From contig CAIIXF020000001.1 of NCBI GenBank assembly GCA_903813345.2, forward strand, positions 24,180,001-24,244,000: DNA of 64,000 nt, read 5' to 3'. Both the position numbers and the translations under genes were made by a program. Below, piece after piece: positions 4,646 to 64,000 of the stretch. The notes below the pieces were generated by a model. It did no database searches. It was not told where the DNA came from and saw only the letters and a list, made by a program, of their open reading frames with translations. Within the stretch, counting starts at the first letter, position 1. Each line of letters opens with the position of its first letter. This DNA comes from Owenia fusiformis. Lineage: Eukaryota.

Positions 4646-5028
4646 ACTTGAACACAAGATGAAAATATAAACGAAAAAAAATCAATCCAAGTTCTCATTT
4701 CATATTTATTTGCTTATGTGGCTGTGATTGCAAAACAAGATGAATAAACAACAACAACAACAAATAGTGACATGTACAGCAAGTACATAATTCCAGATAT
4801 ATGCACTGGTTATCCGCTCGATCATGCTGGTTACCGAAACAGTTAGTTTTGGTAACAAAATGTCGGAACGTCGAAGGTACGATTTTTCTGGAATTTTCGG
4901 TTACTGGCGTAATCAAGTGGATCACCTGTGTATATGAACAACATTGTGATAACTGACAGAACAACAAACACTGTTTAATAACCTCAGCCAAAATCAAGTA
5001 AACTTAGATCCAAAAGCAAATGACCCTG

Positions 5029-6857: not shown

Positions 6858-6909
6858 TCCCGCCAAAATTGTTGCATTCTGGGAGCCCATGTGTTTGTCA
6901 AAATGGCGG
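6858..6909 (+). promoter_or_regulatory. E2F-like site (TCCCGCCAAA) and YY1-like motif (AAAATGGCGG, overlapping the ATG) at the PA2G4 start; part of the CLASP/PA2G4 divergent promoter region
   Basis: Motif matches at 6858-6867 and 6900-6909; function not shown. Confidence 0.45.
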
Positions 6910-26171: not shown

Positions 26172-27030
26172 CCTGTATTTCCAACCAGGTGACAATGTAT
26201 TTTCAACTGGGTCACATGTATTTCCAACTGGGTCACATGTATTTCCAACTGGGTCACATGTATTTCCAACTGAGTCACCATGTATTTCATTCTGGGTCAC
26301 CATATGTTTCCAACTGGGTCACCAAGTATTTCCAACTGGGTCACCATGTATTTCAAACTGGGTCATCATGTATTTTCAACTGGGTCACATGTATTTCCAA
26401 ATGGGTCACCATATGTTTCCAACTGGGTCACATGTATTTCCAACTGAGTCACCATGTATTTCAATCTGGGTCACCATATGTTTCCAACTGGGTCACCAAG
26501 TATTTCCAACTGGGTCACCATGTATTTCAATCTGGGTCATCATGTATTTCAATCTGAGTCACCATGTATTTCAATCTGGGTCACCATGTATTTCCAACAG
26601 GGTCACCAAGTATTTCCAACTGGGTCACCATGTATTTCAATCTGGGTCACCATGTATTTCCAACAGGGTCACCATGTATTTCAATCTGGGTCACCATGTA
26701 TTTCAATCTGGGTCACCATGTATTTCAATCTGGGTCACCATATGTTTCCAACTGGGTCACCAAGTATTTCCAACTGGGTCACCATGTATTTCAATCTGGG
26801 TCATCATGTATTTCAATCTGAGTCACCATGTATTTCAATCTGGGTCACCATGTATTTCCAACAGGGTCACCAAGTATTTCCAACTGGGTCACCATGTATT
26901 TCAATCTGGGTCACCATGTATTTCCAACAGGGTCACCATGTATTTCAATCTGGGTCACCATGTATTTCAATCTGAATCACCATGTATTTCAATCTGGGTC
27001 ACCATGTATTCCCAGCAGGGTCACCATGTA
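26172..27030. repeat. 21-22-bp minisatellite (CTGGGTCACCATGTATTTCCAA and variants), ~39 units, with a 264-bp (12-unit) higher-order duplication
   Basis: Directly visible. ORF-track peptides starting at 26564 and 26828 begin identically, 264 bp apart. Confidence 0.95.
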
Positions 27031-30000
27031 TGATTTCAGTTTCCACATTCCCCTGTTCTACAAGTGCATTCACGGCTTCCCCCTGTTCCATATCTACATC
27101 TTTGGTACCCAGTTCTATACTAACAACCCCATCTTCATTCACAGATGTGAGTAAGACAGCATCATGTTCAGTGATATAATGTTCCTTCATTTCTTCCTCA
27201 GTCTTTAATAGAGCATTACAGCAACCACATGATATATACATCTGTTGGTCCAGTTGGGGTACATGGGTCCTCTGGTGCTCCTGTACTTCAGTCTTTGTAA
27301 TGGCAGTGAACTCACAAAGAGAGCATTTATAGCAAGGTATGTCACTGTGAGAATTCATATGCTTCATCCAGGAATGACGTTTAATACCAGACCAACTACA
27401 CAGCTCACATTGAAATGGTCTCTCATCTGAAAGAACATGTGTAAACCATCAGTTCAAATGGGACGTAACCACCAACAATGATAATGTGTTAGTGTGTGTG
27501 GTTGAAGGGTTTATCTTTATTCTAGGCATGTGCAGTATTTGTAATCACCTAAGAATATTGACCTGACAATACCTGTGTTGGCAGAGTGAGCCACAAATGA
27601 GTCATACTGATGTGTTGAGGTTAAGGAAATTAGAAAAGTTGGTGACTTGCCATATATAATACATTTTTCTCTATTTTTATAAATATATACAGCCAGTAGC
27701 TGGAGAAGTAAAACATGCATAAAATGGCAATAATTTCCTATTAATTCTTGGTTCACAGACGAGAAAAGTTCACAATGCTGTTCAAAATAAACTTGATGAC
27801 ACTAGTGTCATATTGTTTTAACAATACTAGTATACCAAACTAAACAGAGGGGAAAGGCAAATTTAAAGCAGGTACGTTCAAAAGATTTGTAGAAAATTGA
27901 TTAAAATGTTCAAATGATTATAAATATGTAATTCAAGATATACCAGATATACCTTAAGGACTTTCTCCGATCTGGCAAAGCCATCAAACTTCGATTATTT
28001 TGGTACATAATTATTAAACAAGGTATGACATGTATGATATTATTTCAATTTTTGTTTTAATACTTGCCATGGTGAATAGTAACTTCTATACCTGAATGCG
28101 TCATAAGATGACGTGTCAGCTGTTGTTTTTGATATGACGTAAAGCTGCACTGGTCACATGCAAATTTCTTGATTTGATGATGTACACGTTCAACATGTTG
28201 TCTCATGTTGCGTGGGGTGGACAGTGTCTTACCACAGTGGATGCACACTGAGGGACCAGCATTATGGATGTGGGTCCTGAAACAAAAGCATCGAGGCTCT
28301 TAAAACGAATGCAAAAGATTTTTCTTAGGCTCTGTTAATATAGTTCACAAATGAAATATAGTTTTCTTTTGATTCTCTTTTCTAATCTCATTGCTGTTTT
28401 GCTTTCATAATAAACTGTCCAAAATTATCAACAAACATGACAAACAGAAAGAGTGACATCCCTCTTTCTTTGCTAATTCCTTGAAATATAAAAATCCAGT
28501 AATAAAGTTGACGGATCATATAAATAGGTGAAATCATTGAATAGACGGACAGTCCCTCCTTCACCAAAACATACGAAAAACTTTGAGCCTGTTGATGTCA
28601 ATCCCAAAATATAAGGACCTCAGTATCTAGAGAAAACTCATAAAGTGCTAAATCTTACTTGTGATGTCTAAGATGTAGCTTTGTTGTGTACTTCTCATTA
28701 CACAGAGAGCAGCGTAACAGCCCCTCTCCATTGTGTACCAGCTCAATGTGTTCCTTCAGGGGCTTATGGGATTGGAATGCCTCCCCACAATGTTGACACA
28801 TAGGCTTAGACTTGTGAACATTGGTAATATGTTGCTGCAAGTTAAACCTCACTTGGAACTTAGCTCCACATGTCTCACAAACATAAGGATCATCCTTACT
28901 TCTATGAAGATCTTGATGATATTTATAATTTTGAGGATTCTTTGCTTCAAAACCACATATCTTACATTTTAATTTTCCAATTTCATGAGCATATAAATGT
29001 TGCCCTAGAGTGTTTTGCATGTTAGTAGCTGCTTTAAAGGTTCTGCCACATATTAAACATTGATATTCATCTATACCTTCATCATTTTTTATTAGTTTGT
29101 ATTTGTCTGGAAACCTTTCCAGATAATATTTCTGTTGCTTCTCCAATCGTGTCATATACTTTTTAGTTTTAGTTTGTTTACTTTGAGATCTGACCAAAAT
29201 TCCAGTTATTTTCACATGTTTAGCTTTACTCTGAGGTAAAATACAAGAGTCCTTATTAGGTGAGGAATTTTGGTTTTTAGAATCATCAGTTTGATCTGCA
29301 ACTGATGAGTCAATGTCACTAACATCATCTCTTTTTTCAGTTTGAACATTTTCATTTAATTCTGTAGACATGCTGTTTTTATCACTAACAGCAGGTATGT
29401 CCATTACATCCTCATTATCCACAGGAAAATTTTCATGAGCATCATTTGTTGCTGCATTTTTTGTATCATTCTGTGTTACGCTCTCATCAATGTTACTACC
29501 TTGCTTCTCTATTGATTCACCTACTGAAGATACTGTCATCATTGTTTCATCAGTTTCAAGTTTATCTGACTCCTTTGGTTCAACTGGATGTGCTAAATCT
29601 AACGTGTCTGTAGCTTCAGCAATGAATTCAGAATCTGTATCCATATAAACTTGTTTAACAGTTGTGTTACTATTCTGTGATTCGTTATTGTCATCGTCAT
29701 TGTGACAATGACTACTGGGATCTCCAAACCTCTTGTGGCACTTGTGCTGAGCGAGGTCTTCTTCCAAAAGGAAACCTCCTTTGCAGAACAAACATATATT
29801 GATGCATAATGAGAAGTTACCTTCCTCCTCTGAAAAACAAGTAACTTTATATTATTTCACAAAGAAACATACAACATGGTAAATATGTAGTGTATGTATA
29901 GACTGCGCATGTAATATACTTCACTCATTCAAGTTTTCAAACTAAAGTTATTTGGGTGTTTTTCATTGAATTAAAAATGATTCGACTTATATGTAAAGAA

Positions 30001-45359: not shown

Positions 45360-48300
45360 TCACAGCACTAATCTGTATAAATAAATAAATAAGCATGTAG
45401 ACACTAAGAAATGGTTCAGACATTGAACTGACCAGCCAGTTTCTTTATTCTTGTCTGGTGACACATGTTTGCCATAGCATTCCAAAGGGCCAATGGTGAA
45501 ATATCCCTTCTCCTGTTCGCTATTCCCTAGTTGTAAAAATAATTAAGATGAACTTTACAGATGAAGAAAATATTTTCAATGTTGTTAAGTTGTCACATCG
45601 TTAAATATTGTGAGTATTCCCATGAGTACATGTGCAGCTGTATAGTGAATGGTGATGTTACAAATGTAACCATGTGGTTCCTCATCTTCCTTAAATCCTG
45701 CAGAAGTTCTCATCTACAGAAGTTACTTCACCTACATGAATATCTCAAATGGTATGAATTATCTGATTTTCTACTTCTTATAATAACACATTTTCATCTC
45801 AGACCCACCTGTCTCTCCAGCAAAGATAGTATGTACAGGAAGATCTTTCTTGTGTTCAATATAGCCCTCATCAGATCTCCATACATTATCATTAGCATCG
45901 CAGTTACACACAGTGGGGGGAGGGTCAGGCAACTCAGTGCTTCTGGCGCAGGATTCATTCATATAACAGGCACAGGCCTTGCTGTCTACATCTGCACCAC
46001 CCCAGTAGTACCTGCGGAAGCAATACAAGGGGTACTCAATAGTACTAATACATGTGCTTGTATGTTCATGTTAACTGAAGAATCAAAATGATATATTTAC
46101 AGAGATTGAAGGTGACATGTAAGTCTAAATGCAAGCTATGTTATGAATTTATTCTTGGCACCTTCTTGGCAAAATAACTGTTAATATAAGGATGATGGTG
46201 CATATTTTCTCAAATGTGTTGCTAAAAATGTATTTAAGTCCAAAATGGTTTAAACCTTTGTAAACAATAGCATTTTGATCAATCACAGCAACCCATGTAG
46301 AACCCACATGGGTTGGCCCCCTTGACTATATGACTGATCCCAATTGATTTTCTCTTATTACTAAACCCCACACTTTGTTGCAGAAACCATATGACCTTTG
46401 ATGCATCAGCTGTTTTTCAACCAAGGGATGTCCCTTATAGGATTAACCTATAACCAATAACTTACAAATTATTTGCAAGATATTTTTTCATTGGTATAAT
46501 ATGCAATTAATCATGTACAAAATCAGAATTAATCCCTGTTTAGATGACAAACACTGCATCCCTGGTTAAAACCTTAGCAAGCTATTTAAAAGACCTTCAA
46601 TCTATAAATTCTGAGAATTTGGAGTACTAATCCTTACTTTTGTATGTTTTTCCTGTTGGACCAGAATGTGTTCTTGCTTTCTACATCATAGGGGCTAGTA
46701 ATGGCTGCATTGTAGCACTCCCATTTAACATACTGCCTACAGTACTCTGATCGGTCCACTAGGGCTATGACATCACTCATCTCTAAGCCATAATCAAGAT
46801 CTTGTTCATATTCTCCTGGACCCTCATAACCCTGGACCTCCATTTTCTCCTCTTGATTGTGATCTGATAAATAATTTAGAGAATCAGCATTAAGGATATA
46901 TATTGCACTTTGGATCAAACATGTATTTCTTGAAACCAGAAAGGGATGCAATGGTGACAAAGCGATAATGTGACAAAGTGTCACAAGGTGTAACAATTGT
47001 TACAGACACTGATTCCAAAGCTGAATGCTTATTACAAAAAATTGTTACTTTTAACAGTATGTTACTATTTAGTGATATTTCAGTTCCAACTGGTTCAATG
47101 AGTTCAGGTTTACATAAGTTAAGGTGGACACTATAGATGGTGTGAACAAACATCATTATACTATTCTACAAGTAAAAATCTCATACAAGTTAAGCAACTT
47201 TGCTATTCAAACTCAGTCTCTCTTTAAATGTATGTAGTGTCATTTGATGTGTCATTCTGGATGTACTTACGTAGCACCATGACTCCTACACCATCCATCA
47301 TCTCCAAGTCACAATATACAAATATAGGGCCATATGACGACTCTTCACCATCTGGATCTACCTCTGCAAGCCTGCTTTCAAGTAAGCCTCTTTCCATCAG
47401 CTCTGAACATGTCCGAGCTACAATCATATATCAACTCATGATTTCATCATAGTTTGTAATGGGCAATAATACAGGTGCATTCACTCCATAGCACTTCATT
47501 CATGATTGCAATTCCATAGCACTCCATTCAAGATTGCAATAATATTTCTAATATCAATAGGATGGTTACATTCTGGGTTGATGGGAAGAGCAGTGAAATT
47601 AATGCAAACATTCTTCTTATACTGTACTCCGGGTATTGTTCGCGTGCGATTTAATTTCGCTTTGTTCGCGAATGTAGTAAAATCGTGAACATTTATCGTC
47701 GCGAAATTTGTCTTTTAAATCCCCGGGGATTTGACCCGGGACTTTTGATATGTTTCGTTCGGTGTAAAACGCTGATTTACAGCTGATTGTGATCACTCTT
47801 TTTGTATTTGATTATCAACAATTACTAGTATTAGTAATAGTACTATACTCTCAGACTGTATGTTCTTTTTCTTCAATATACAGTACTAGTACATTGAGAA
47901 AATGTTAACATGGGGTATTGTTCAATTTTATATCAACAATTGATGTACTTGCTAAGCTCATGCATATGTAAAAAGGCATGTAAGTATGTTAATATTATCG
48001 ATATGGAGTTTACAGAGCTGGAGGAAAAAATTCAAATTGTGCAATCCGCGAAATGTCATCAACTCAAATCCGCGAAATTAAATAGCGTCGAAATTTACCA
48101 GGAGTACAGTATTTCAATTCTCACTTTTAAATGTAATGTAATGTACCTCTGAAATAGTTTTTTATATCTGTAACAGAATATTTTTCATCACCCACCAATC
48201 ACAAAATTCAGACCATGTTTTGGTAACTCTATGTCTTTTGGGTTTCAAACTGTAAATTAAAGGAAGTACTTTACCAGTGCTTGAGAGAAATACATACCAT

Positions 48301-49910
48301 ATGGTTCACAGTCATAGGTGTGGCAATCCTGGGTCTCTGTACTGTTTCCTTCACATTCTTTGGTACGGTCCCCGAATGATGTGGTATTACAGTGGCGCTC
48401 CCTGGAACGGGAACCTCCACCACATGTTGTAGAGCAAGGTGACCATGTCTCCCAACTTAACCATAGTCCTGAAACTGTTGCAAATAAAATACAATTAATA
48501 GATTACTCAATACAAACATACAATAGGTCAAAGTACAACGGCAAGCTCTGTACATACAGTCTACAGTATAGCAAAACAAACGCATGTGGTCAGCCAAAAA
48601 ATACACCCAAATTATCTTTCATGACTAATTATGTTGCATTAGTTTCATCTCAACTTTGAGAGCTTTCGATATAAGTTATTTGGAATATGTATACGCAAAC
48701 TTGTATTTGTACGAGTCAGGTATAGCACAGGGGAGGAACTATGGAATACAAGGTGCTTGAAAGCCCATGATATAAGTTATTTGGAATACGTATACGCAAA
48801 CTTGTACTTGTACGAGTCAGGTATAGCACAGGGGAGGAACTCAGGAAACGAAGATAGAGTGCTTTCATCTTTCAAATCACAACAAAATATTTGGCAAGTA
48901 TGTAGTTTGTGAGTTCTGGTTTCAAACATTGATTACAACTGAGAAATTAATTCTGCCATTGCTGGGTTATTCACATATTAATTCCCTCGATTACATTGGA
49001 TAAGGATTAGGATTACCTTTCCAGTGATGTTTATGTCATTTAAAAGTTAGCCTTGCAGTATAAGTTTGATTGAAAAGTTATATCGAAAGCTCTCTATTAA
49101 AATTATGTACTGTACAATGCACATGTACAACAAGCACATATAGCAATACTATGGTAACTAGAGCCATACAATGGTAACTAGAGCCATACTATGGTAACTA
49201 GGGCCATACTATGGTAGCAAGAGCAATACTAACTGACTATCAGCCACACGCTATACCAATATCTGTTTTACTCACTGTTACAGTGAAATCACTTCTTGGC
49301 ATTGTACAGAATATTCAAATCAAAGTTTAGATATACAAGAAAATAATAAAGATAACATCAAATTGCAAAATGGAATAAAAATACAATCATGTAGCTTTAT
49401 ATAAACATTTCAATCAATTCAAATAAAATATGAGACCAATAACCTACTCAGACATGTTTCTGTTCCACATATCTCTGTCTGTGTGTCGGGACCATGACAC
49501 TCTTCCCCATTATAATATGGGCCATCACATGTCCTGTTACGGGTTCTGATACCTCCACCACATGTAACACTGCATTCGCTCCATAATCCCCAGGTATTGT
49601 ATACACCATCAACTACAAGTAAAATACACAAATATATGATATGAGGAAAGACAATGCAATACAGACGGTGAACACAACTTGAAGTCTGAATTTCTTTATG
49701 ATTCATATGATAATGATTTCAGGATGGTAAGGGGAGGGGGCGTACCTGGACAATGATGAGTGTTACAGTCTGCTGTCTCTTGGCTATCTCCCTCACACGG
49801 CTTTCCATCATAGAATGGCCCTAAACAACTACGCTCTCGCTGCTTGGCTCCCCCTCCACAGCTAAGTGAGCAATCTCCCCATTGTTCCCAGTCTGCATAA
49901 ATTCCATCAA
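45360..49910 (-). CDS. Extracellular protein, 3' part: at least 3 thrombospondin type-1 repeats plus a CASPR/neurexin-IV-type fibrinogen-like domain
   Basis: Exons 49746-49910, 49448-49612, 48298-48474 (each a phase-1 TSP1 exon: W..W..CS..CGGG...R.R.C), 47271-47417, 46638-46863, 45809-46011, 45360-45526. Motifs VDPDG..VYCD, GYEGPGEY, SEYCRQYVKWEC, YWGG..CAC, CNCDANDNVWRSDEG..LPV..GETG, GYFTIGPLECYG. 5' end not identified; last exon boundary less certain. Confidence 0.88.
47622..48109. mobile_element. TA-flanked MITE (Tc1/mariner-like ends)
   Basis: TA|CTGTACTCC.GGTA...TACCAGGAGTACAG|TA; subterminal CGCGAA motifs. Confidence 0.75.
48658..49094. mobile_element. MITE with GAGAGCTTTCGATATAA TIRs and an internal ~100-bp-period duplication
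   Basis: 17-bp inverted termini; GATATAAGTTATTTGGAATA...GGGGAGGAACT repeated at ~48668 and ~48769. Confidence 0.7.
49146..49232. repeat. 20-bp tandem repeat (ATACTATGGTAACTAGAGCC), about 4 copies
   Basis: Directly visible. Confidence 0.85.
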
Positions 49911-51609
49911 CTGGAAGTAGCACAATGTTAACATTTAAACAATGACAGATGTATACTTGTATGATAAAATACATAAAACATTGACTTATTTTCAGCCACT
50001 CTGTGATGTTGTAAGAGAATGAAACTCTGAGAGCAACATTACTGGAATTCACTGTAGTCAAAAGTTGTTTTGAAGCTGATTATAAAATGATGATGTTTTT
50101 ATTTAAAAATGTACATTTGTAGCGATAGTGGTTCAATTGTGTAAAAAAATGATGAAACCAGGAAAAATGATGAGTACAATGTATGATGCCCATGATGACA
50201 GTTTATGCTATAAGTGAAATGCCAAGCACAGTGATTATGGCAATGGTAGGATTTGTACAAGAACATTTTAGCAGACTGCCAGCTGGCAAAGCAGTTCAAG
50301 CAAAAGGAAGTGTTGTGAGATATTCATGTTTAAAATAAATTTTATCAAAGGCATGGCCAATGACAAAACTATAGTTCTCTTTCAAACATTCCTCATTTTA
50401 GATATCTTAAGCTAGAAATAGATAGCAGTTAAACATAGCAGCATAAATGGAATGTGTAACCATGCATTATCTTAGCCCAATGAGTTTACTTTTTTTTCGA
50501 TGATTTAAAAGTTCAGAATGATATTTGGGAGGTGTTGTGGTGTCTCCTGACTACAGGCTTCTACATCAATCAAATGAACTATATAATATGTATCTATGTT
50601 TCAAATCAACTCCCTCTGAAATGGATGAAAAAATCAGTGCAGTAACATTTGAATTATTGCCTGAATTGAATTATTGCCTGAATTGACAGATGGAATTACT
50701 TTCAGAAAGCTATTATCATCTGTTTCATTCCCTAAAAACTCAAGATTATCTAACTCTTCTTTCTGTCACACATCTGTTTCTATTTGCAAGGATTCCACGA
50801 CCAAGGTATTCACATTTATTTCCCTATATAAACTGGATCAGTTTGTGAACAGGCATTTGCATATGGGGAAAACATTCATAATTTTCTTATGATCTTTTAG
50901 CTGTAAACGTAGCGTCATTATTATTTAATAAGGCTAGGATAAATATGATATATAATAAGCGGGTCAAGCAAAGTGATATGACAAAAAAGCAAATATTGAG
51001 TCAAATCCTCTTATTGCGAAACTAATTTAGAAATCATTGATTAGACAAAAGCAAATATTGAGTCAAATTTTCCCTTTGCCAAACTTATTTAAGAAATCAT
51101 AATTGAAGACAAAATTAACAGAATAATTGAGATAAATAGTCTTCAATTTATATTACACAACAGTTTAGAAATGACTTGTTCACTTACATGGCACTCCAGG
51201 TTCTAAAAATCGTAATTGAAATGTTACAATTCTGCAAATCTTATCCAGTAGCCCTTTATATGATAAATGGGATGATACATGTGTTTTGATATAAATGCTC
51301 TCATTTTTTTGCATTTATGCATTTGCAATGTAATGAAAATGCAATGAAACAAGTAAAATAATAGAATGTTTTATTTATCTTAAAACTAAATTGTTTTTCA
51401 TCAATATTCAAACAAATGAAGAAGCATACATTCCAAGGAAAATAACTTGGAAACATTTATAATACTAACCTAACCAGCTAGATCTACACATAGATCTACA
51501 CTAATAGACTTGAAGACATGACAATGATTACAGTACTACTGTATATGAAATATCTTGTGCTGTGAATAATAATTTATTAATTAATCATTAGTTGCCCCGG
51601 CGAAAAAGC

Positions 51610-53600
51610 ATGGAATAATTCCTGATTATTCGTGAATTATTCATCAATATTCATGTAAAATATTCATGAATAATCCACCAATGAAGAATAATTATTCATG
51701 AACTATTCATGAATATGCGTGATCATCAATTTGGACACTTCCCCAAAATTCTTCAAAACTGAATTACTGGAATATTCATGAATAAACTTTCAAGGACCCG
51801 TGAAGAATAAACAAGAACAAAAAAGAAAGAAATATCAAGGAATTTTTGAAGAATAAACATGAATTTATATTCCTTTTTATTCTTCACATTCTGATTCAGC
51901 AAAAATCATGAATTCTTCAAGCATATGCTTGAACATCAATTTGGATATTCTTCATTATTCTTCAAAATCCTTCTATGTTCATCATTTATTACTCATTTTT
52001 CATCATATGATAACTAGCACACCTGCCATGAATTATTCAAGAATAAAGATGAATAAAAATTTTAATTGTCGTGGAATTTTATAAGAATAAAGAAGGAGAA
52101 ATTTTTATGAATCTTTAAGAATACACAAGAATGAGCATTCATGATTTTTGACGAATAAACAAGAATTAATATTCTTCTTTATTCTTCAAATTTCTAGTAA
52201 GCAAATTCATGAATTATTCAAGCATATGCTTGAACATCAATTTGGACATTCTTCATTATTCTTCACAATCCTTCTATGTTCATCATTTATTCCCCAAATT
52301 TTCATCATATGATAACTTGCTCACCTGCCATGAATTATTAAAGAATAAAGATGAATAGAAATCCTGATTATCAGGAATTTTTTAAGAATAAAGAAGGAGA
52401 AATCTTTATGAATCTTTAAGAATACACAAGAATAAACGTTCATGATTTTTGACGAATAAACAAGAATTAATATTCTTCTTTATTCTTCAAATTTCTAGTA
52501 AGCAAATTCATGAATTATTCAAGCATATGCTTGAACATCAATTTGGACATTCTTCATTATTCTTCACAATCCTTCTATATTCATCATTTATTCCCCAAAT
52601 TTTCATCATATGATAACTTGCTCACCTGCCATGAATTATTGAAGAATAAAGATGAATAGAAATCCTGATTATCAGGAATTTTTTAAGAATAAAGAAGGAG
52701 AAATCTTTATGAATCTTTAAGAATACACAAGAATAAACATTCATGATTTTTACGAATAAACAAGAATTAATATTCTTCTTTATTCTTCAAATTTCTAGTA
52801 AGCAAATTCATGAATTATTCAAGCATATGCTTGAACATCAATTTGGACATTCTTCATTATTCTTCACAAACCTTCTATGTTCATCATTTATTCCCCAAAT
52901 TTTCATCATATGATTACTTGCTCACCTGCCATGAATTATTAAAGAATAAAGATGAATAGATTATCAGAATTTTTTAAGAATAAAGAAGGAAAAATCGTCA
53001 TGAATCTCTAAGAATAAACAAGAATAAACATTCTCGTTTTTGAAGAATATATATTAATAAATATTCTTCTTTATTCTTCAAATTTCTAGGAAGCAAATTC
53101 AAGAATTATTCAAGCATATGCTTGGACATCAATTTTGATATTCTTCAATATTCTTCACAATCCCTCTATGTTCATGATTTATTCCTCAATTTTCATCATA
53201 TGATAACTTGACACTTTCCATGAATTATTCAAGAATAAAGATCCTTATTATCAGGGATTTCTTAAGAATAAATGAGAAATCTTCATGAATAAACATTCAT
53301 GTTTTTGATGAATAAACAAGAATTAATATTCTTCTTTATTCTTCAAATTTCTAATCAAATTGATGAATTATTCAAGCATATGCTTGAAAACTAATTCTTA
53401 AATATTCATCGGTAATTCTTCAATTTTCAAACTTCCAGTCACTATTGAGTTCCCAAGAATAAAGATGAATAAACATTCAGGATTATTATTATCACTTTAG
53501 AATAATGAAGAATAAATTCTTCATGAATAAACAAGGATTCCTTTATGATTTTTAAGAATGAAAATATTTTAAAGAATAAATGATAAAAACTTACCTCATT
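51610..53600. repeat. Subterminal tandem array, ~300-bp unit, 6-7 copies
   Basis: Marker AAGCATATGCTTG at ~51919, 52220, 52521, 52821, 53112 and 53374; units rich in GAATAAA/TTTATTC and TCATGAAT. Confidence 0.92.
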
Positions 53601-53883
53601 TCTTTTTACTGAGTTATTCATGTATATGCATCATGGGTAGTAATCAGAAAATGCTTCATTATGCATCACCTCAATTTTTTATCTGATGTTTGCACTTTCC
53701 CTGAGTTTCTCAAGAATAAATATGAATAAAGAATAAACAATTCAATTGAAGTTACATAGAACTGCTTTATATTATTCTTAACAAATACTGTCAAACTACA
53801 AAATGAGTGTCCTTCTACAGGAAAGTTACAAAGTTACAAATACAAGTGTCTTGTCAAGTTGCAAATACAAGTGTCTTACGCAT

Positions 53884-56410
53884 CTACATTCTATTTTTTA
53901 AGCGTAATGCCTTTTGAATGTTAGCAATTTTTTCCTTCGTAATTTTTGGAGAAGTCTTACAATGTCTTTCCACTAAAGTTAGCACTCTGTTAACATTAGT
54001 CTGGTCTAGTGGGGGTCTAGAGCTCTCTGAACGACTTGATTTTTTCCCGGTGACACTATGGAGTATCAACTCTTCTTCTGTGAAAAAATAGCTTACCAGC
54101 TTTTTTGTCACTGAACGGACATCACTTGCTGGTAGATGCTTAATAACATCATAAGCAATGTCATTTTCGTCCATATGCATTGCTTTTCTTATTTCAGCAA
54201 CTTGGTTCTCGAGGTCCTTTACTCTCCTCTTTAGGCTTCTAATAGTTCTAGCAGACCTATATTGAAATAAATTGGAGACATTCAAAATCACAGGTATTTT
54301 TTCATACTTTTTTCTGAAAGGTAAACATGGTCATGCAGGGGTTTCAATAAATATGTTTTCAACAGGCTTTTTTGGCGATTTCAATAGGCTGGAACTTATT
54401 TCACCAAAATTGCTAAGGACAATGAATTTTTTTCTCAATATTTGAACAGGCATACTTGTGATTTTTTGCCGTCTGCCTGACTCATTATGAAAAGGCCAGA
54501 GGGATTAAAGAAGTAGTTTAAGTAAACCTCTTTCAGTAACTAGTAATTTATGCTTGAGTTAACAACGTGAAATAAATAGGTAAAAATTATCTTACTTGTT
54601 CCCAGAGTTTGGGGGATTTTCTTCTTCCAAGTCTTTCAATGAATGCTCATCTTGGTTGGTTTTAATTTTTTCCCTTGATGCCTTTGCAGATCTGTTATAA
54701 ATAAATTGGTGGCATATTTAAAATCTGAGGCATATTTTAATTTTATACTTTATTTCTGAAAGGTGAAACATGGTCATGCAGGAGTTTCAATAAATATGTT
54801 TTTAATAGACCTTTTGGCAATTTTAATAGGATTTCACTAAAATTGGTAATTTCTCAAAATTTGAACAGGCTTAATTGTGATTTGAAATGGTTTTTTGCCA
54901 TCTGCCTTTGACTCATGGTCAAAATGGCAGAGGGAATTCTTTGAAGTATGGTAGTTAACTTAAAGGGGCAATAAGGCTTGTAGAGAGAAAATAGGAAAAT
55001 TTCAACTTTTTCTGAGCTATCAAGGCAACATTTGGCTTAACATCTTCTTTGACATACCTATTTTCTTAAAATGTATGGATAAACTATCAATTTCAGCATT
55101 AAGAAGTGTAAATTCAGTTCAAAGCTAAATGGGACGTCCACTTTTATATTTTTAAGATCCACCATGTTTCAAGAGGAATATCAGCTGAAATAATGTTTAT
55201 CTAGAGACTAGCGGGTTTCATTGTAGATAATAAAAATAGATGTTAGTCTTGATGAAGTATCCAAACTTAAATATATTTTGACACTGGTCCATGATCGTTA
55301 AATAGCCCCTCTGCACTAATTGTTGCACCTAAATTATGCTTGACTTAACAACATGAAATAAATAGGTAAAAATTATCTTACGTGTTCTCAGAGGCTGAGG
55401 CATTTTCAGAGGCTGAGGCATTTTCTGGCGAACTAGCCATATCATCTGTGTCACTCGATGAATGCTCATCTGTCATGTCTGTCTCCCTGTCCCCGGCATC
55501 TTCAATGCAACCACCTCGGTTGCGTGCGATGTTACCCCAATATGCCTTGATTAGACATATAATCTCATCTTGGGTTAAATTCTCATCAATGTACTTATCT
55601 GTCTTTTTGGCAGCTTGTACAAGCTCTGCATCGGACAATGATGCTAAAATAATAAGAGAAATTTCTCAGTCTAAAACTCAATCAGTCTCTAACTATAATG
55701 TTAGCCTGTAAGCGCAAGTCTTCAGTGATCAAAATAGAATAAAATCAACAACCCCAAAATTTTACGGGTGACAAAGTTTTTCATCCGTCAAAATAACCTA
55801 CCTGTCAATATTTCGACAGATTAAAATTAGTTCCCTTCGAATGATGACCTGCAGGCCCTTAGCCAGGATTTGCCAAGGGGGGGTTCACTTTTCAGAAAAA
55901 TTCCAGGGGGGTTCACGTTGACAAAGTTGACCCAAAATCACATGAAAATGCTCAGAATGGTGATGCATGATTTTGAAAGAATGTTTGGCCAGGGGGGGGT
56001 CCGAACCGAATCGACCCCCCCCCCCTGGCTACGGGCCTGACCAAAAGGTCAAAAGTCAATCACACGAGTCGCAACTGACAGAGAGAGAAAAGTTGTTGGG
56101 CCAAATGTGTTACAGGGCCTCAATTAATGTGCCTTTATGTCATTAAAAGGCCTTTAAGGGCCTCATTTTTAAAGAAACTGACCCTAAATTTTCAAAATTT
56201 TGAATTCTAACAGTCTTGCTTACCTCCGATCCCCAAGCAAATAGCGTCGTGTTCTTTAGCTTTCTTTCCAGCACCAAATCTACAAACGACAAATTCACCT
56301 AGTTCTGGGCATGTTCCTTTAGATCTATTGACAAGATTCCTGGCAGGCTCGATACTTTGTGTAAAATCTTCCACCCAAAGTAGCAATAAATAGTCTGTTT
56401 TCTCCGCCAT
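53884..56410 (-). CDS. BEN-domain protein, 305 aa (N-terminal beta-rich module, acidic linker, coiled coil, C-terminal BEN-like domain); likely transposon accessory gene
   Basis: Exons 56224-56410, 55382-55643, 54596-54691, 53884-54256; GT-AG, 918 nt, open. C-terminal TKKLVSYFFTEEELILHSVTGKK...RPPLDQTNV matches the BEN signature (L...FF..E.L...S.TG.......LD). Heptad stretch IRSLKRRVKDLENQVAEIRK. Confidence 0.8.
55852..56039. mobile_element. Short MITE in BEN gene intron 1
   Basis: TIR CAGGCCC.TAGCCAGG / CCTGGCTACGGGCCTG. Confidence 0.75.
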
Positions 56411-58756
56411 CTTCTTCGAAAATTCGCGCGTCTGAAGATTGACGTAATGAAATATTAACCAATCAGCAGCAATGATGCTGTACCCAGGATGCATCGGGGA
56501 AGTGAAAGAAAATGGCAAAATTTACTCTGTGATTTTGTATCGGATTTGTTAAATATTATTATTGATGTGCATACAAACGTAAATGTTATCCTATTTTCGG
56601 TATAAATACGTACAAAACTACAGTATAATAAGAGTAAAACAGTCTGATTTATGGAATTTACATTAAAAGTAAAGGCGCGACGGTGTAATTTCGTTTAGTT
56701 GAGGTTTCAATTTAGACAGATTAACTACTTCCGGCAAATCCGTAAAAACAATTTTAGATCAATATTTTGATTAAAAATAACAAATCAGGTTAGTAAATTC
56801 AATCTATTTCCATGCATAGATGCCGGCAAGATTATTTTTTAGAAGGATAGCTCAATATTATATTATTCAGATGGGACGGTCCCCTCGAAAAAAATCAAAT
56901 TTAAAATTTACGTCAACGATCACGAGTCGGGGGGGGGGGTGCCGCTGAGACTCAAAATATCTACCCACATCTTGGGATTTTGTTCTCTAAAAATGAACCC
57001 GGTTTTCTTTCAAAAATAGACCCACTTCAAGGTAATTTTTAAAACACAAGACCCACTTCCGGCGATTTTTTTCAAAAACAATACCCAGTTTTAGGATTTT
57101 TCCAAAAATAGACCCATCTCTAGGGATTTTTTCCCAGATTTTTTTTATCAAAATGAAACCTCAATCTAGGGTTTTTTCTTCAAAATGGGACCCACACCTA
57201 GGGATTTGGCGAAAGAGTGACCCATTTTAGTGGCACGTCCCCATATATTACTCGAGTCTCTAGCTTACAGCTAGATGTAACTTGATTGATTTCGTATGTT
57301 TTCCTGAAAAAATGTCATACACGCACCTTGAACTCATTTTTAATAGTTTCTATAAATATTTATAAGAATATTAATCATATTGATGTAGAAGCTTTGCTTG
57401 TCTGAATTTAGATATTTCAAAATTTCTTTTCGGAAAAACATTCAAACTCAATGGATCCGCCATTTATACACCTCAGTGACCTCATTCGCAGAAAAATGGT
57501 GGCCATTTTAAAATGAAATTTCGTTTTGCGAAATTAAATGCTAAATACACTCGATTAAGACGGGGATATGAGCTGATTTTCTGCAAATGTATGCATAAAG
57601 GTATGTTTCATATAATAATGACGAAACAACTGTGCGTGGTCACCATGCATTGGCAAATATTGAATACCACAGCTGCTGTAACAGTGGCTCAAAGCCAGAT
57701 CATAGAGAAGGCTTTGGAACTAAGTAACCCATATAGATCTAGCCAATATATGGGGGTTGGTTTATATCCTTTCTTTGAGGTGCTTTAATGTCACCTAGGT
57801 GGTCTCTAGTGCTGGTTTTGTCTCTTGTACATTTAGTTTTGCGATTAGCTACTCTTGTGGTTTGTAGAGTCCTTTTTTGTTTTATATAAAATCCTGTACA
57901 GGTTGGCTAAGATCATATTCATAACTGCGATTGTTATTCACATTGTCGTGCAGCCATTTCAAAAAAATATGAGACATCTCATATCAAATCATATCTCATT
58001 CGAAGCGTCTTGTTATTCTTTAACTTTCTTATCACTAACGAATCGTATACAAACAATTAGACAAAATAGTGATATATATTCAATATTGGTGGAAGGCTGT
58101 CCAAATCTGAATGTGCTTCTGTGATCCGAGAAATGTGAAGTCAGCATTACAATTATATTTGAATACACAGGATCCCAGAACAAGATTCGGTGTCTCATCT
58201 TGAGGAATATTTATTGAGCTTCTGATCCCTACTACAAAAGAATTTTGCTGGCATCTATGTTTCCATGTACGTTTTTACTGAAAATACATGTCGCATTTCT
58301 AAATTGACTTTTTCCTAGAAATTCAAAATTTTGAACCTTAGTCTACAGCACATACAGGGAACAGATAGTACACTGACTGAAATTCTCTCTGTACCCAGTA
58401 GGTAAATTTTGTTCGGTGTACTAAAACTATCTGTTCCCAGGCCTATGGTCTACACAGCCCTAAAGGCTAGAGTTGGAGGAAATGTAAGTTGGTAGTCGAC
58501 TTTTTGTGATTTTGATGTCATTTCTGCATTTCACAATCCACAATCGTGTGATTCATAATTGAAAATTAACATGTGACTCTATTGAGCGTTGCAACAAAAT
58601 TCACCCTGACCTTTACACCAGATTCAAATTTGTCCCACTCACTTTCGATTTATATTTCTCACATGACAAAACAATAATCAAAATCAAAAAAGTAGGAGAT
58701 ATATCTAATTTGGTAAATTTTGTATCAGGATTTCCCATCACAAAAAATAATGACTG

Positions 58757-60068
58757 CAGACTTGCCAACCTAAAATGAAAAATTTGCGTGAGATTTTCAA
58801 AAAATTGCGGTACTTTTACATGAGAGTTCTCCAAAATACGGTAGTTTTTGCGGGAGATTTTTGAAAAAACTAGAGTTTTTTACGCGCGATTTTTGAAAAA
58901 CTGGAGTTTTTAAGGGAGAGTAGTTTTTAAGTAAATTTTATAAAAAGTGGTAGTTTTTGCGGGAGATTTTTGAAAAAAACGGAAGGTTTTGCGGAGGATT
59001 TTTTAAAATACAGGAGTTTTGCGGGAGATTTTTGAAAAACGGGTGTTTTTGTGGGAGATTTTAAAAACGGCGATTTTTATGGGAGATTTTTGAAAAAAGG
59101 GAGTTTTTACGGGAGAGTTTTGATAAAACAGGAGTTTTCGTGGGAGAGTTTTGAAAAAACGGCAGTTTATGTGGGAGAGTTTTGAAAAAAACGGCAGTTT
59201 TTGCGGGATATGATTTTGAAAATAAACGGAAGTTTTTGTGGTAGACTTTTGACAAACGGTAGTTTTTGCGGGAGATTTTTGAAGAAACTGTAGTTGTTGC
59301 GGAAGAAAAAATGGGAGGAGCAGATTTTATTATTCTAGAAGCTGATTAAACATGCGTAAAATGCATGGGGCGTGCTACCACTGATCATATCAGACTAAAT
59401 CATGCAAAGTATGCAAACTATAGACTCTAAAAAGTAGTTCTTATCATTTCCATCCCGTTTTGAACGATATCGCCGATTCATACATGAATCTGTGACATTA
59501 AGGATGCAGTACAGGGTTAGCGTAGCTTACGTTCCAGATATTAGATTATGCTCATATTTTTCGCACTGTATCACAATGATGTTATCATTAGCCAAGTGCA
59601 ATATAAAGAGGACTGACCAGCTGGTTACTACAAGATAAATTATTTACATTGACGGAATTTTTGAAAAAGATTTCTATGCATTTTTCATTTTCGGGTCACA
59701 GTTTCTTCATAAATATTGACTATGTCCAATAGAAACTTCATCTACCGACAGAAATATAAACCATCTATATTACGGATCCATAAAAATGATAAATGGCATG
59801 CAAACAGTTAAAAATGTATAAACATATATAAAATGTGCAAACAGATAAGAAAATTGTTGAAAAAATGAAACGGTCCCCGAGTTTGCAAAATGTAACGCCC
59901 AATGCGGAAATCGAACCGAAGACCTTTCGTTCCCAAGAGAGATTTTAGTAGAAATACGGTACGGGAGTGTTTACGGGAGAAAACGGTACAGGAGTTTTGT
60001 TATTTTTTACGGAAAAACAAAAAATTTACGGGAGATTCCCGTAAAAAAACGGGAGGTTGGCAAGTCTG
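58757..60068. mobile_element. hAT5-like MITE with a 5-bp TSD and an internal ~30-bp degenerate tandem repeat
   Basis: TIR CAGACTTGCCAACC / GGTTGGCAAGTCTG; GACTG at 58752-58756 and 60069-60073; ACGGTAGTTTTTGCGGGAGATTTTTGAAAAA-type repeats ~58835-59305. Confidence 0.8.
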
Positions 60069-60235
60069 GACTGCAAACTTACATTTCTGCTGAGAATAGA
60101 TATATGAGACTGGCGCCAAATTTTGCTCCCCAACTTCTTACTTTCACTGTGCAGCTTGTGGATTGATTATATACATATCATCATAAAAATTTGTCTTTTT
60201 TATTTTGCAGTTAATAGCTTGACTCACCATTTATT

Positions 60236-63200
60236 ATGAATGAATGTGAGAATACAAACCAAAACAGTCCAGGTTTCTTGGTTCTGCAGGAAAATGGAAA
60301 GAAACAATTTGAGTGCAGGGAATGTAGGCGGACTTTTACAAATAAAAGAAACATTGAAATGCATCTACATTCAAGTCATGGCTATTGTAAGTTTCCATTT
60401 TTGAAGTTCAAAAAGTGGTTTTTGAAGGACTTTTTGTTGGAAAATTGTGAATTTGTTTAAAACTAACTTTTAGAGGCCACACGTATCAATCGCCCATATA
60501 CAAATGCATGTAGCATTCTCACATAAATAGTCATCATAGTAGTCATATACTATCAGATACATGAAGATTGATCCACTAGAACTGATGAATATTCAAGTTC
60601 AAAAGAACCTTTTTCTATACTTGCTATGGTATCTGACCCGATGTAGCCACCTTGTGGTGAAATTGGTAACTACCTACTGGCATCTGGGTAATTAAAACTC
60701 GATGAATTTTATAATTTATTTTTGAATCCATTTCCCATTGTGGAGTTAACAAATATATTTTCTTACAGCTTCACCAGTGAAGAAGTATAAATTGTACGAA
60801 AACAAACCAGGATTAAAAGAGAATGTACCAAGGAGTACCGTTTGGTATAGAGCAAATAGGAGTAAATTGGAGAAAGAGCAGGAAGGTAAATAATTTAGAT
60901 TTATGTAACCTCATCTTTTAAGCTCACATGGGTCACGGGCTTATCTACCTTGATCCAATCTTATGTTACTATTGTTTTAGTATAGGATTCCCTAATATAT
61001 AAATATGCTTATTCGGCAAGTTTGAAAAGTGCAGCCCCTCTCTATAGGGAAAACCTCTGAACAAGGAAACTTTCCTCCAGTCTCAAGAGCATTCCCTGTT
61101 CGCAGGTTTTACTGTACATATAATTTAATTAAATTGTGCACTTTTCAGGTACAGATGATCAAGGGCCAGATGGAGAACGTCAAAATGATCAGAAAGATTC
61201 ACAGGATGACATCACCCCTGAGTATTCAGACAAGGCCTATACAATTTCTGAAAAAAGTGAAACCACTAGTATTGAACTTGAGAATTCTATTGCTATTTCA
61301 TCACTCGTGGGTAATGGTACTGTAGTCCAATCTGTCACTCAATTATCAGATTACAATCATGGTGACAAGATTGATGAAAGTTCATCTGCAACTGACTATG
61401 TTAATGGTAGCGAGCCATATGGCAAACTTGATATTGACTCAGACTCAACATCTATGAACTCGCATTCAGAATTGGACTCTGACGGTTATGAAAATATATT
61501 TTCTGACTCTGAATTTGATTCTTATAGTGATTCAAGCATATACAGTTGTTCATCTGATTCGGAGACTGAACGCACATCCTGTTCAGAAATTGAAAATGAC
61601 TCACTTGATCTTGACAAAGATATAATTGGCAGTGATGTGTATTTAAAGATACTGTCATGTTTTATTCGCAATGAACTTTCAGCTACAGCTTGCAAAGATG
61701 TGTTACAAACATTTCAGAAACTAACTCCAGAATCTCAGGTTTGGAATCAAATATCATATGACAAGATATGGAGCATAGTGGATAATGTTACCAAGCAAAT
61801 TCATTATTGCCCAGATTGTAGCAGGATATTTCCCGAGGATGACGTTGACTGTGTGGAATGTCCGTGTGGTGGTCTAAGATATATTGGTACAGCAGAGGAA
61901 CAGAGAAAAGCTAATCGACAACCATGCAAAAAGTTTGTGTTTCTTGATCCAAAGAAATACATAAAGGACCTACTTGAGCTACCAGGTAAAGTATTATTGG
62001 AATGTTTCAGTTCAATTGAATAATTTGGCATTATTTTCTAAAATCCTACTTTTCAAGATGGCCACTGAATTTCAAAATGGCGGCCATTTTCCCTTAAAAA
62101 AACGTAATCTTTGATAACTTAAATACCAGTGAACGGATTTGGTTCAAATTTTATATGATGATGCCTAGGGACAAAGTAGATCTGTTCGAGTAAGAATTTT
62201 CAAGATGGCAGCTGAATTTCAAAATGGCGGCCATTTTTCGTAAAAAAAATAATCTTTGATAACTCAAATACCAGTGAACGGATTTGGTTCAAATTTTATA
62301 TGCTCATACCTAGGGACACAGTAGCTCTGTTCAAGAAAGAATTTTCAAAATGGCCACTGAATTTCCAAATGGCTGCCATTTTTATAAAAGAAAGTAATCT
62401 TTGATAACTCAATTGCTAATTGACGCACAAGACTGTGGGTCCTTTATTACATTGTCCTAATTATCTTTTACAGGAACTTATTTTATTTATCTTTTACAGG
62501 AATGTGGGATGGCCTACAGAAAAACAAAGGAGTCATACTCGAACGCTATGAAACTAGTGATGGGGTACTAAAAGATGTTACAGATGGTGAGGTCTACAGA
62601 AACCTAATAAAAACTGGATTTTTATCAAATCCTCACAATATTAGTGTCATGATGAATACAGATGGTGTTAACCTCTATAAATCAACAGGTGTTGAAATAT
62701 GGCCGATTTTCCTATCAGTGACTGAACTCCCTCCTGCAGAGAGGTTTGCTCGTGAAAATATGATCCCAGCTAGTTTATGGCAAGGAAAGGGTAAGCCACC
62801 TTTCCAACAGTACATGGAAGTATTCTCATCGGAAATGAACAAACTATATACAGAGGGCATAGATATTCATGTAAATCAAGAAATGATAAATGTGAAAGTA
62901 GTAGTCATTACATCACCAGCAGACCTACCAGCTAGGGCAAATATGATGAACATGACATATTATAACGGCCAGTATGCTTGCACAACTTGTGAAATACCAG
63001 GCAAAACTGAAGTACAAGGTGGTGGACACACTAAAGCATTTCCAGCCCAGCACACCTACAAATACAGAACAGACAAGGAGATTCGCGATTGCATGACAAA
63101 AGGCCAAGAGAAAAAAAGAATCCTGGGTTTTAAAGGTAAATCTGGGCTCTATGATCTGAAAGGAGTGGACTTGAGCAAACTTTGCCCACCCGACTACATG

Positions 63201-64000
63201 CACTGTGTCTGTATGGGTGTAATCCCAAAAATTAATAAAAGGTGGTTTTCTTCTGAAAACAGCAATGAAAGTTACCATGTTGGTAAAGAAATAAAAGAAA
63301 TTTCAAGAAGAATGCAGTATATTAAGCCACCAAACATGATAGAAAGGTTACCACGAAACCTGGAGAAACATTATTTACACTTCAAGGCAACTGAAAATCA
63401 AACATGGATGCTTTTTTATGCAGTACCTTGCCTCGAAGGAATCCTCCCTAAGAAATACTTGGACCATTTCAAAAAACTCTCTGAAGGCATACACATTTTG
63501 CTTGGTGACAGTATAACTACAGAACAAATTAACAGAGCAGAACTTCTCCTCAAAGAATTCTACGTTGAATACCCCAAGCTATATCCCCCTGGAGACTGTA
63601 CATTGAACTTGCACTACATTGGAGCCCATTTCGGATATTGGGTCCAACAATTGGGACCATTGTGGAATTGGAGCTGCTTTCCCTATGAAGATTCAAATGC
63701 ACATATATTAAAAATGTGCCATGGAACAGGGGATGTAACAACACAGATAATGAGGCAAAAAACAGCTGAGATTAAAATAAGGACACAAAATCAACCAGTC
63801 AAAATCAAAGAGTTGAATACAACTGAGGAAAAACTTAAAATACATGGTAAAACAAGGCCATTATCTGATTCTGATCATGATCTGGACTCTGTGCCTCAGA
63901 ACTGTACATCAGTGGCTTCACGAATCTCCATAAATGGAGAGATGTTCTACTCTGATGAGTATGCACGCATGAAGAGGAGAATTTGTAACTGTGTGGAATT
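60236..64000 (+). CDS. CMC/EnSpm(CACTA)-type DDE transposase, spliced, more than 868 aa, 3'-incomplete
   Basis: Exons 60236-60386, 60769-60885, 61149-61985, 62500->64000; by my manual translation the last exon is stop-free to the window end. Motifs: C2H2 finger, VPRSTVW, HYCPDC..CPC, DVTDGEVY, NTDGVNLYKS, IWPIF..ELPP.ERF, DLPARA, NGQYACTTC, DYMH, RLPR, FKATE, LGPLWNWSCFPYEDSN. Confidence 0.92.
62050..62412. repeat. ~2 tandem copies of a ~165-bp HINE-like core repeat in a transposase intron
   Basis: AATCTTTGATAACT.AAATACCAGTGAACGGATTTGGTTCAAATTTTATATG and AAAATGGCGGCCATTTT are repeated; relative at ~20720-20830. Confidence 0.7.

Follow-up and report, generated by a model that had tools for sequence, protein, structure and literature searches.

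Structure of the Locus

We analyzed a stretch of 64,000 nucleotides of Owenia fusiformis DNA (assembly GCA_903813345.2, contig CAIIXF020000001.1, positions 24,180,001-24,244,000 of the forward strand), referred to below as the window, for which an annotation made from the sequence alone was already at hand (the original prediction). The G+C content of the window is 30-38%, and it contains spliced genes with animal-type domains. Positions 51595-64000 hold the first ~12.4 kb, counted from the left end, of an apparently intact, multi-copy DNA transposon of the cut-and-paste kind, autonomous and with two genes. From left to right, the order is a CCCC-starting end, a subterminal zone with a tandem array, a gene for a BEN-domain protein on the minus strand, and a divergent transposase gene on the plus strand that runs off the window (Table 1). 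Protein domains were assigned with the curated Pfam cut-offs, tandem repeats with Tandem Repeats Finder, and internal copies by self-BLAST of the window. The splice joints of both genes rest on gene models, and the table of RNA joints was dominated by high-copy repeats. Related loci came from an alignment-based scan of metagenome contigs, which found 366 stretches with a relative of the transposase; the best 80 were kept and are designated by L numbers. A search of metagenome contigs with the transposase alone gave 21 pattern matches, none of which was a relative.

The transposase gene has 4 exons separated by GT..AG introns and codes for 868 amino acids without a stop codon, in a frame that is still open at the window end, in line with the uninterrupted spliced gene that had been proposed. 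Exon 4 matched the Pfam family Transposase_21 (E 1.1e-15, 57.8 bits vs a cut-off of 28.6), a domain that was present in 5 of the 5 relatives scanned. The protein aligned with the 838-amino-acid relative P0001 at 41% identity over 718 columns, unbroken from residue 183 to residue 864 and across the exon 3/4 junction (residue 368). Because exon 4 aligns to residues 243-745 of an 838-amino-acid relative, roughly 90-100 further amino acids are expected beyond the window. The candidate catalytic residues named earlier, in the motifs NTDG, DLPA, and PYEDS, correspond to D55, D142, and E397, all invariant in a 40-sequence alignment. In the same alignment, ACTTCE corresponds to a nearly invariant C161-x2-C164 and LHYIGAH to an invariant H372-x4-H377. 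The C-x2-C and H-x4-H motifs are given as hallmarks of the EnSpm/Mirage/Chapaev/Transib group (PMC12730594).

The zinc finger of exon 1 of the transposase matched Pfam zf-C2H2 weakly (E 0.005, below the cut-off). The transposase open reading frame (ORF) of the related locus L011 has C2H2 fingers before an RTTLWRRKR-type motif, a layout as in the window, and the N-terminus of the L012 transposase matches zf-C2H2/zf-BED. Exon 2 resembles the N-termini of P0004 and P0012 by eye, and the BLASTP alignments start at residue 168 or later, inside exon 3. Among 1.84 billion representative proteins, HMMER found 12,848 relatives of the transposase at E <= 0.001; the best were 46-48% identical and typically 840-900 amino acids long, and those with a named source were "uncharacterized" proteins of a scallop and a thrips. 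Neither a transposase copy more than 50% identical nor the BEN protein of the window was found in the protein collections searched, and such genes are therefore probably masked or missed in annotation.

The BEN gene also has 4 exons. All its introns are GT..AG with matching phases, and the 305-amino-acid product ends in a single terminal stop, so the gene is uninterrupted, as had been claimed. Exon 4 matched Pfam BEN (PF10523) with E 7.5e-11 and 42.5 bits vs a cut-off of 23.2. Thus both profile searches suggested with the original prediction, for BEN and for the CACTA transposase, gave matches above the Pfam cut-offs. BEN was the only Pfam match among the exons of this gene, with no TnpA-type family. 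The exon 1 part matched no Pfam family and had no similarity in the related loci, and the N-terminal parts of the protein as a whole had no match in the 80 loci. Exon 3 and the following intron duplicate the start of exon 4 and its preceding intron at 73-88% identity (54265-55407); in the self-BLAST, intron sequence at 54265-54504 matches 54699-54935, and 54544-54621 matches 55330-55407. The gene thus came to have 4 exons through an internal, frame-preserving duplication.

A profile of the window BEN domain and its relatives matched three BEN domains of known structure, those of NACC1 (E about 1e-5), Insensitive (9e-5), and BEND6 (2e-4). When a 7-sequence BEN profile was searched against an index of 5.8 billion proteins, two NACC2-like proteins were the only matches (E about 1e-8, 30-33% identity over 57% of the query). 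Exon 4 itself had no match among longer or near-length proteins of that index, which is weak evidence of rarity because a word index limits such searches. A complex prediction for two copies of exon 4 gave no answer (score 0.03) and carries no weight in either direction.

The sequence CCCCGGCGAAAAAGCATGG begins at 51595 and occurs once in the window. In reverse complement, its first 12 bases agree with the right end of the related locus L001 at all positions (12/12), and it is similar to the ends of L011, CCCTTG(T/C)AAAAC, which bears out the CCC-starting terminus of the original prediction. The TG immediately before 51595 would be one copy of a 2-bp target duplication. From this end, an A+T-rich zone of about 2.1 kb extends to about 53700 and is filled with short motifs. 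The palindrome TTCATGAA has 9 of its 12 window copies in 51595-53800 and none between 53800 and 64000, a range that includes the 3.8-kb spacer of the divergent gene pair; for AAGAATAA, 33 of the 44 copies lie in 51595-53800 and 11 in the other 61.8 kb. This region had been described as 2 kb of ~300-bp repeats. The period was right, at 301 bp, whereas the array itself is shorter, about 1.4-1.6 kb, with decayed copies reaching about 53422 in the self-BLAST; it is the whole motif zone that approaches the stated length.

Table 1. Features of the element and its passenger repeats, in window coordinates
Feature	Position	Strand	Description
Left terminus	51595-51613	+	CCCCGGCGAAAA, conserved core of the terminal inverted repeat
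Left subterminal region	51614-53700	.	Short motifs in both orientations: palindrome TTCATGAA and AAGAATAA(A)
Tandem array	51842-53242	.	Period 301 bp, 4.7 copies; Tandem Repeats Finder, 92% matches, score 2257
BEN exon 4	53884-54256	-	Predicted long helix, then BEN domain; stop codon 53884-53886
BEN exon 3	54596-54691	-	32 amino acids; local copy, together with its intron, of the exon 4 region
BEN exon 2	55382-55643	-	Acidic, Ser/Thr-rich (composition)
Repeat like a miniature inverted-repeat transposable element (MITE), BEN intron 1	55852-56040	.	Very high copy number, ~190 bp; inverted ends GGCCCGTAGCCAGG...CCTGGCTAAGGGCC, poly-G/C tracts; passenger
BEN exon 1	56224-56410	-	ATG at 56410; 62-amino-acid N-terminal part
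Spacer between the divergent genes	56411-60235	.	Includes 31-bp x12 tandem array 58935-59306 and ACGGGAGA repeats near 59950-60060
Transposase exon 1	60236-60386	+	ATG and one C2H2-type zinc finger
Transposase exon 2	60769-60885	+	KKYKLYENKPG...PRSTVWYRANR
Transposase exon 3	61149-61985	+	Acidic Ser/Asp-rich stretch, then Cys-rich region; aligned to P0001, P0004, P0012
145-bp x2.5 repeat, transposase intron 3	62050-62412	.	High copy number; passenger; copies at 20721-20831 and 11195-11317
Transposase exon 4	62500-64000+	+	Pfam Transposase_21; frame open at window end

Copy Number and Transcription

Contig depth was taken from two runs, X1 and X4, and two stranded RNA runs were used as raw reads, with read mapping at an 85% likeness threshold. 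Contig depth is a rough measure of copy number, and dispersed and tandem copies are indistinguishable by it. Contigs with 0 differences to the window had a depth of 277-906 on the element vs about 85-120 on the flanks in X1, and of 26-99 vs about 3-6 in X4. In X1, the depth was 277 at 53324-53799, 555 at 54073-54757 (over BEN exons 3-4), 581 at 56409-56939, 524-668 between the two genes, and 893-906 on the transposase exons, where X4 reached 34-41. A single X4 contig of depth 26 covers 53324-54989, that is, the inner subterminal region together with BEN exons 3-4. The binned X1 depth is 78 at 50801-51400 and jumps to 386 in the bin that contains the CCCC end (51401-52000). Roughly 3-10 copies thus combine the BEN gene with the spacer and the transposase, and stretches of 0.5-1.9 kb do not differ between them. 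Since the depth is raised across all three parts, the BEN gene is co-amplified with the transposase.

The transposase is transcribed. Over the transposase exon at 62801-64000, read pairs with their first mate on the minus strand, which is sense if the usual library type is assumed, reached a depth of 10-34 in the two stranded runs, and those of the other strand stayed below 1. The spacer presumably holds the promoters of both genes. Its 31-bp array (…AGTTTTTGCGGGAGATTTTTGAAAAAACGG…), which can be followed over 58783-59306 upstream of the transposase start, and the ACGGGAGA-type repeats at 59950-60060 are possible regulatory sites; these repeats belong to the element because their depth equals that of the element.

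RNA was also found in the subterminal region. In both stranded runs, plus-strand RNA of depth about 2-7 covers 51401-53800, antisense to the BEN gene and pointing inward from the end, vs almost no RNA in the adjoining flank bin (50801-51400). It could come from an end-borne promoter or be a source of antisense or small RNA, and at 85% likeness any copy of the family may be the source.

Related Elements and Their Ends

L001 has the nearest transposase, with 48% identity over 414 columns. Its right end reads …AACTTTTCGCCGGGG (…TTTTCGCCGGGG), the form that the original prediction had expected of the missing terminus, and 11 copies of TTCATGAA lie within 6165-6459, in the 330 bp before that end. 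L011 is a complete element of 12,079 bp (358-12436). Its left end is CCCTTGTAAAACAAATCTGG… and its right end, in reverse complement, CCCTTGCAAAACAAATTTCT…, with the shared form CCCTTG(T/C)AAAACAAAT. Palindromes of the TTCTAGAA type pack both subterminal regions in both orientations, and none of the 7 exact copies is farther than about 250 bp from an end. The order in L011 is end, motifs, BEN ORF (-), long Q-rich and K/E-rich ORFs (-), zinc-finger transposase (+), motifs, end.

L011 is nested in the coding sequence of another transposase gene of the same superfamily (minus strand; contig positions 1-357 and 12437-13132) and is flanked by TT on both sides. Only removal of the element together with 2 bp gives …GPQFMTY|NVHQLLHL…, and the interrupted gene, once restored, fits the LY-x5-T-[YLF]|N[VI]HQLLHL of its relatives in frame, spacing, and the conserved T. 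As frame and spacing are restored only in this way, the target duplication of L011 is 2 bp (TT), within the 2-3 bp foreseen for the window element.

The likeness of copy pairs ends right after …TTTTCGTAC(G/A)GG in L054/L055 and right after …TTTTGCAAGGG in L011/L012. Comparison of the ends across relatives thus shows that the family ends share CCC-N3-(C/T)(G/A)AAAA. CCC stands at the start of the window element, at both ends of L011, and at the right ends of L001, L012, L054, and L055. The left limit of the likeness between L054 and L055 was also considered as an element end and rejected; the first 71 bases of L054 are an inverted copy of bases about 100-130, and this inverted start (1-130) is probably an assembly artefact. 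In these relatives, 1.1-2.0 kb separate the catalytic match from the right end. By this measure, the window element should end about 1-2 kb past base 64000 and have a total length of about 14 kb. Neither a second copy of the element nor a right end was found within the window, the first 51 kb of which shares only small high-copy repeats with it.

The same loci bear on whether a mobile element is present at all. A segmental duplication of a host region with a BEN gene and a domesticated transposase-derived gene might look similar, in that the right end and the target duplication of the window copy lie outside the window, no empty site was seen for it, and the depth table is blind to tandem vs dispersed copies. 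However, the depth rises exactly at the conserved CCCCGGCGAAAA terminus, inverted ends and a 2-bp duplication delimit relatives with the same end and gene pair, one of them nested in another gene, and subterminal motif arrays are a transposon feature. We therefore consider a segmental duplication highly improbable, and the locus is treated below as a transposon.

To follow the BEN gene, a hidden Markov model seeded with the BEN exon of the window was iterated over all ORFs of at least 40 amino acids in the 80 loci. BEN-like ORFs were found in L011, L022, L030, L051, L052, L054, and L055. Pfam BEN matched those of L030 (E 1.6e-8) and L011 (E 2.5e-6), that of L022 fell below the cut-off (E 0.0084), and the ORFs of L054, L055, L051, L052, and L048 had no Pfam BEN match. 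The ORFs of L054, L055, L051, and L052 stop in the middle of the domain, where an intron is likely. A profile of the L054, L051, and L052 ORFs (that of L055 is identical to L054) matched the solved NACC1 BEN domain at E 6.6e-6, and because of this match the four were accepted as BEN; the L048 candidate, with no Pfam match, was dropped. The likeness between the two groups of BEN ORFs was weak in hhalign (probability 42%, E 2.6e-4).

Counts of upstream BEN ORFs rest on the 25 of the 80 loci that have at least 4 kb of sequence upstream. A divergent BEN ORF lies on the opposite strand 3.5-7.5 kb upstream of the catalytic exon in six of these 25, and the overall count is 7/80 when L030 is included. 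Together with the window, the divergent cases make up about six families (window, L011, L022, L051, L052, and L054/55, the last a pair of copies from a single family). Both large clades of the transposase tree are represented, and the transposases of these families are only about 34-39% identical to that of the window. The conclusion that the BEN gene belongs to the element, and is no host gene that happens to adjoin it, is well supported, because it lies between the end and the transposase and is co-amplified with the latter, because L011, complete with both ends and a target duplication, holds the same divergent pair, and because the pair recurs in 5 further related loci of four further families.

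Some of the related loci have further ORFs near the BEN exon or a different layout. In L052, the BEN exon is preceded on its own strand by a long ORF (2533-3882, minus strand), and L044 has a similar one (378-1994, minus strand); these ORFs reach 539 amino acids and have no Pfam match. The long L052 ORF is probably the N-terminal body of the BEN protein of that family. L043, L047, and L050 keep just the first 171 residues of an ORF of the L052 type. In L030, the BEN ORF (1634-1861) and the catalytic region of the transposase share one strand, with the former 409 bp before the latter, and the transposase has lost its N-terminal part and is split over two frames; L030 is either a rearranged or decayed copy or a different, perhaps fused, layout.

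Comparison with Known Transposons

The features of the ends and of the transposase, taken from sequence comparison, support well an assignment of the element to the animal "CCC-terminus" branch of the CACTA/EnSpm (CMC) superfamily. The type as such is already known: TRC elements are animal members of the CACTA superfamily with CCC-core inverted ends and 2-bp duplications, reported in Schistosoma, Tribolium, and Aedes (DeMarco et al., 2006, PMC1636069). Their ends start with CCC and not with CACTA, e.g., CCCTAGTAGC... and CCCAGTCAAC (PMC1636069), and the CCCC end of the window and the 2-bp duplication of L011 fit this description. SmTRC1 and other TRC elements also share with the window element a Transposase_21 transposase, multi-exon genes, and a large size, the Aedes element being 9.2 kb (PMC1636069). 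SmTRC1 differs in that its extra proteins arise by alternative splicing of one unit and have no detectable relatives, and the accessible portion of the report mentions no BEN domain (PMC1636069). In the window, by contrast, the second protein is encoded by a separate divergent gene, has a BEN domain, and is conserved across several families.

Maize En/Spm belongs to the same transposase superfamily and likewise has two element proteins and long subterminal regions with a motif in both orientations. By analogy, catalysis and end binding may be split between two proteins in the window element as well. The differences are that the ends of the window element and its relatives are CCC and not CACTA, that the duplication is 2 bp in L011 vs 3 bp in EnSpm (PMC12730594), that the genes of the window are divergent and not alternative splice forms, and that the BEN protein has no similarity or homology to TnpA. 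A strict plant definition of CACTA elements, with 5'-CAC(TA)...GTG-3' ends and a 3-bp duplication, thus does not cover the window element, whose end reads CCCCGG..., nor L011, L001, L054, and L055, with ends of the form CCC.../...GGG. Chapaev elements have invariable CAC...GTG ends and a 3-4-bp duplication (PMC4079192), unlike the CCC ends seen here and the 2 bp in L011.

The nearest solved or named relatives of the BEN domain of the element are NACC1/NACC2 (BTB-BEN), Insensitive, and BEND6. These are single-copy host transcription factors with other partner domains (BTB) and share 30-33% identity with it, and the element protein, unlike the host BEN factors, is acidic in its middle part, with a long helix predicted ahead of the domain. 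The BEN domain is so far known from host chromatin factors and DNA viruses. A two-gene design is also found in PIF/Harbinger elements, which encode a Myb/SANT-like DNA-binding protein beside a DDE transposase and both of whose partners have given rise to host genes; they differ from the window element in transposase superfamily, ends, target duplication, and DNA-binding fold. To our knowledge, few eukaryotic cut-and-paste transposons other than plant En/Spm and PIF/Harbinger need or carry a separate DNA-binding helper. No description of a BEN gene in a CACTA-type or other DNA transposon was found in the literature searched, which did not extend to Repbase Reports and most subscription journals. 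A conserved BEN helper gene in such elements therefore appears to be undescribed, and its interest is that a well-characterised DNA-binding fold is a conserved second gene in a widespread animal CACTA branch.

Possible Role of the BEN Protein

BEN is an established sequence-specific DNA-binding domain (PMC11601247), and NACC1 prefers CATG/ACATGT (PMC11472053, PMC7764960). The window motif TTCATGAA contains this CATG core, and the core of the L011 motif is CTAG. In the mechanism that we propose, the transposase would cut and join at the CCC ends, and the BEN protein would be the element's own sequence-specific DNA-binding helper, recognising the CATG-core palindromes of the subterminal regions. 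The bound protein may mark or pair both ends, or recruit the transposase, much as TnpA helps TnpD at the element ends in maize En/Spm (PMC1636069). The distribution of the motifs offers circumstantial agreement with a helper role, with the palindromes confined to the ends and none in the inter-gene promoter region. We regard such a TnpA-like function at the subterminal palindromes, which is argued by analogy, as a reading with about equal weight for and against it. If confirmed, a conserved BEN gene in these elements would provide a testable model for how elements of 12-14 kb have their long subterminal regions recognised, a plausible mobile source of the BEN domain, and a candidate for an active animal transposon system with large cargo, whose genes are intact, whose copies are nearly identical, and whose transposase is transcribed.

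Another possibility, less probable but still substantial, is that the transposon is the same and the BEN protein has no part in the transposition machinery and is a regulator that, bound to the subterminal array, silences, insulates, or times expression, or counters host silencing. In flies and mammals, BEN-only proteins serve as repressors or boundary factors, and the BEN proteins studied so far are transcription or chromatin factors. TnpA itself represses and reactivates the Spm promoter (PMC1636069). The 301-bp array adjoins the 3' end of the BEN gene, where the plus-strand RNA of depth 2-7 is antisense to it, and the RNA levels of the BEN gene and the transposase are uncoupled in the two runs. 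On the other hand, the palindrome is confined to the ends and absent from the 3.8-kb spacer, the expected place of the promoters; in L011, it is arranged symmetrically at the two inverted ends, as expected of end-recognition sites.

Several observations weigh against a helper role or against the description of the element on which it is built. The transposase has a zinc finger of its own at the N-terminus, which could bind the ends unaided. The AlphaFold2 model of the BEN exon is all-helical and of modest quality (predicted local distance difference test, pLDDT, 68), and Foldseek with this model gave no match at E <= 0.001, the BEN chains of BEND6 and NACC1 appearing among its weak rows at ranks 2, 3, 4, 6, and 10. 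In the window copy itself, the right terminus and the target duplication fall outside the sequence at hand. The RNA reads and part of the summed depth describe the family and not a single copy, because reads were accepted at 85% likeness. Run X4 carries the label "RNA? (a guess)"; it was treated as DNA because its contigs cross introns and intergenic sequence without splicing. The BEN exons have hardly any sense RNA (depth 0-0.65 in the two stranded runs). The RNA check that had been suggested was thus positive for the transposase and nearly negative for the BEN gene. The earlier proposal that the element is young or active is likewise upheld in part. In its favour are stretches of 0.5-1.9 kb without a difference between several copies, intact frames, and transposase sense RNA; against it, the BEN gene contributes almost no sense RNA, and no insertion polymorphism or empty site was seen in read tables dominated by high-copy repeats. 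Finally, 19 of the 25 loci with at least 4 kb upstream have no BEN ORF, and the BEN gene is therefore not universal. Among these loci, the contig of L044 ends before the expected place, and L043, L047, and L050 are internally deleted.

This last count, the near absence of BEN sense RNA, and the fact that the N-terminal parts of the BEN proteins are unlike between families could also point to a passenger, i.e., a host gene captured once or several times, as in Pack-CACTA elements, with no role in the transposon. CACTA elements are known to take up host DNA. However, the position and divergent orientation of the gene recur in at least 6 families from both clades, in spite of the low transposase identity between them and the window; the window BEN gene is complete and open over its 4 exons; and the nearest host-type BEN proteins, the NACC2-like ones, are only 30-33% identical over 57% of the query. 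A passenger is accordingly an improbable explanation, and a BEN protein that acts as a helper at the ends is the reading that we prefer.

A wider view of the helper can be put forward only as a speculation that we think unlikely. It would make the BEN helper an old, integral module of the animal CCC-type CACTA branch, whose transposase relatives amount to thousands of clusters, that pairs the ends via palindromes with CATG or CTAG cores and has been a repeated source of host BEN factors (NACC1/2, BEND). Host recruitment of transposon genes has precedents in HARBI1/NAIF1 from Harbinger and THAP9 from P elements. If true, BEN would be the DNA-binding partner of a transposase lineage related to RAG1/Transib.

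Passenger Repeats and Other Features of the Window

Two high-copy repeats lie in introns of the element. The MITE-like repeat in BEN intron 1 has a second copy at 4495-4643, a summed X1 depth above 100,000, and loose ends at 55852, 55964, and 55999; RNA is heavy on both of its strands. The 145-bp repeat in transposase intron 3, with motifs …CAAGATGGC[CG]… / AAATGGCGGCCATTTT, has an X1 depth of about 250,000, and its RNA is strongly biased to first mates on the minus strand.

Just left of the element flank, 47201-49600 holds other high-copy repeats (X1 depth 700-21,000), and most of the RNA there comes from pairs whose first mate is on the plus strand. At 49696-50079 (-), a thrombospondin type-1 exon has nearly no RNA in the two stranded runs. 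Further away, a long tandemly repetitive ORF region at 26026-27033 is a host feature or another repeat feature outside the element, and a multi-exon C2H2 zinc-finger gene (-) occupies 26999-27448 and 28655-29851, also outside the element.

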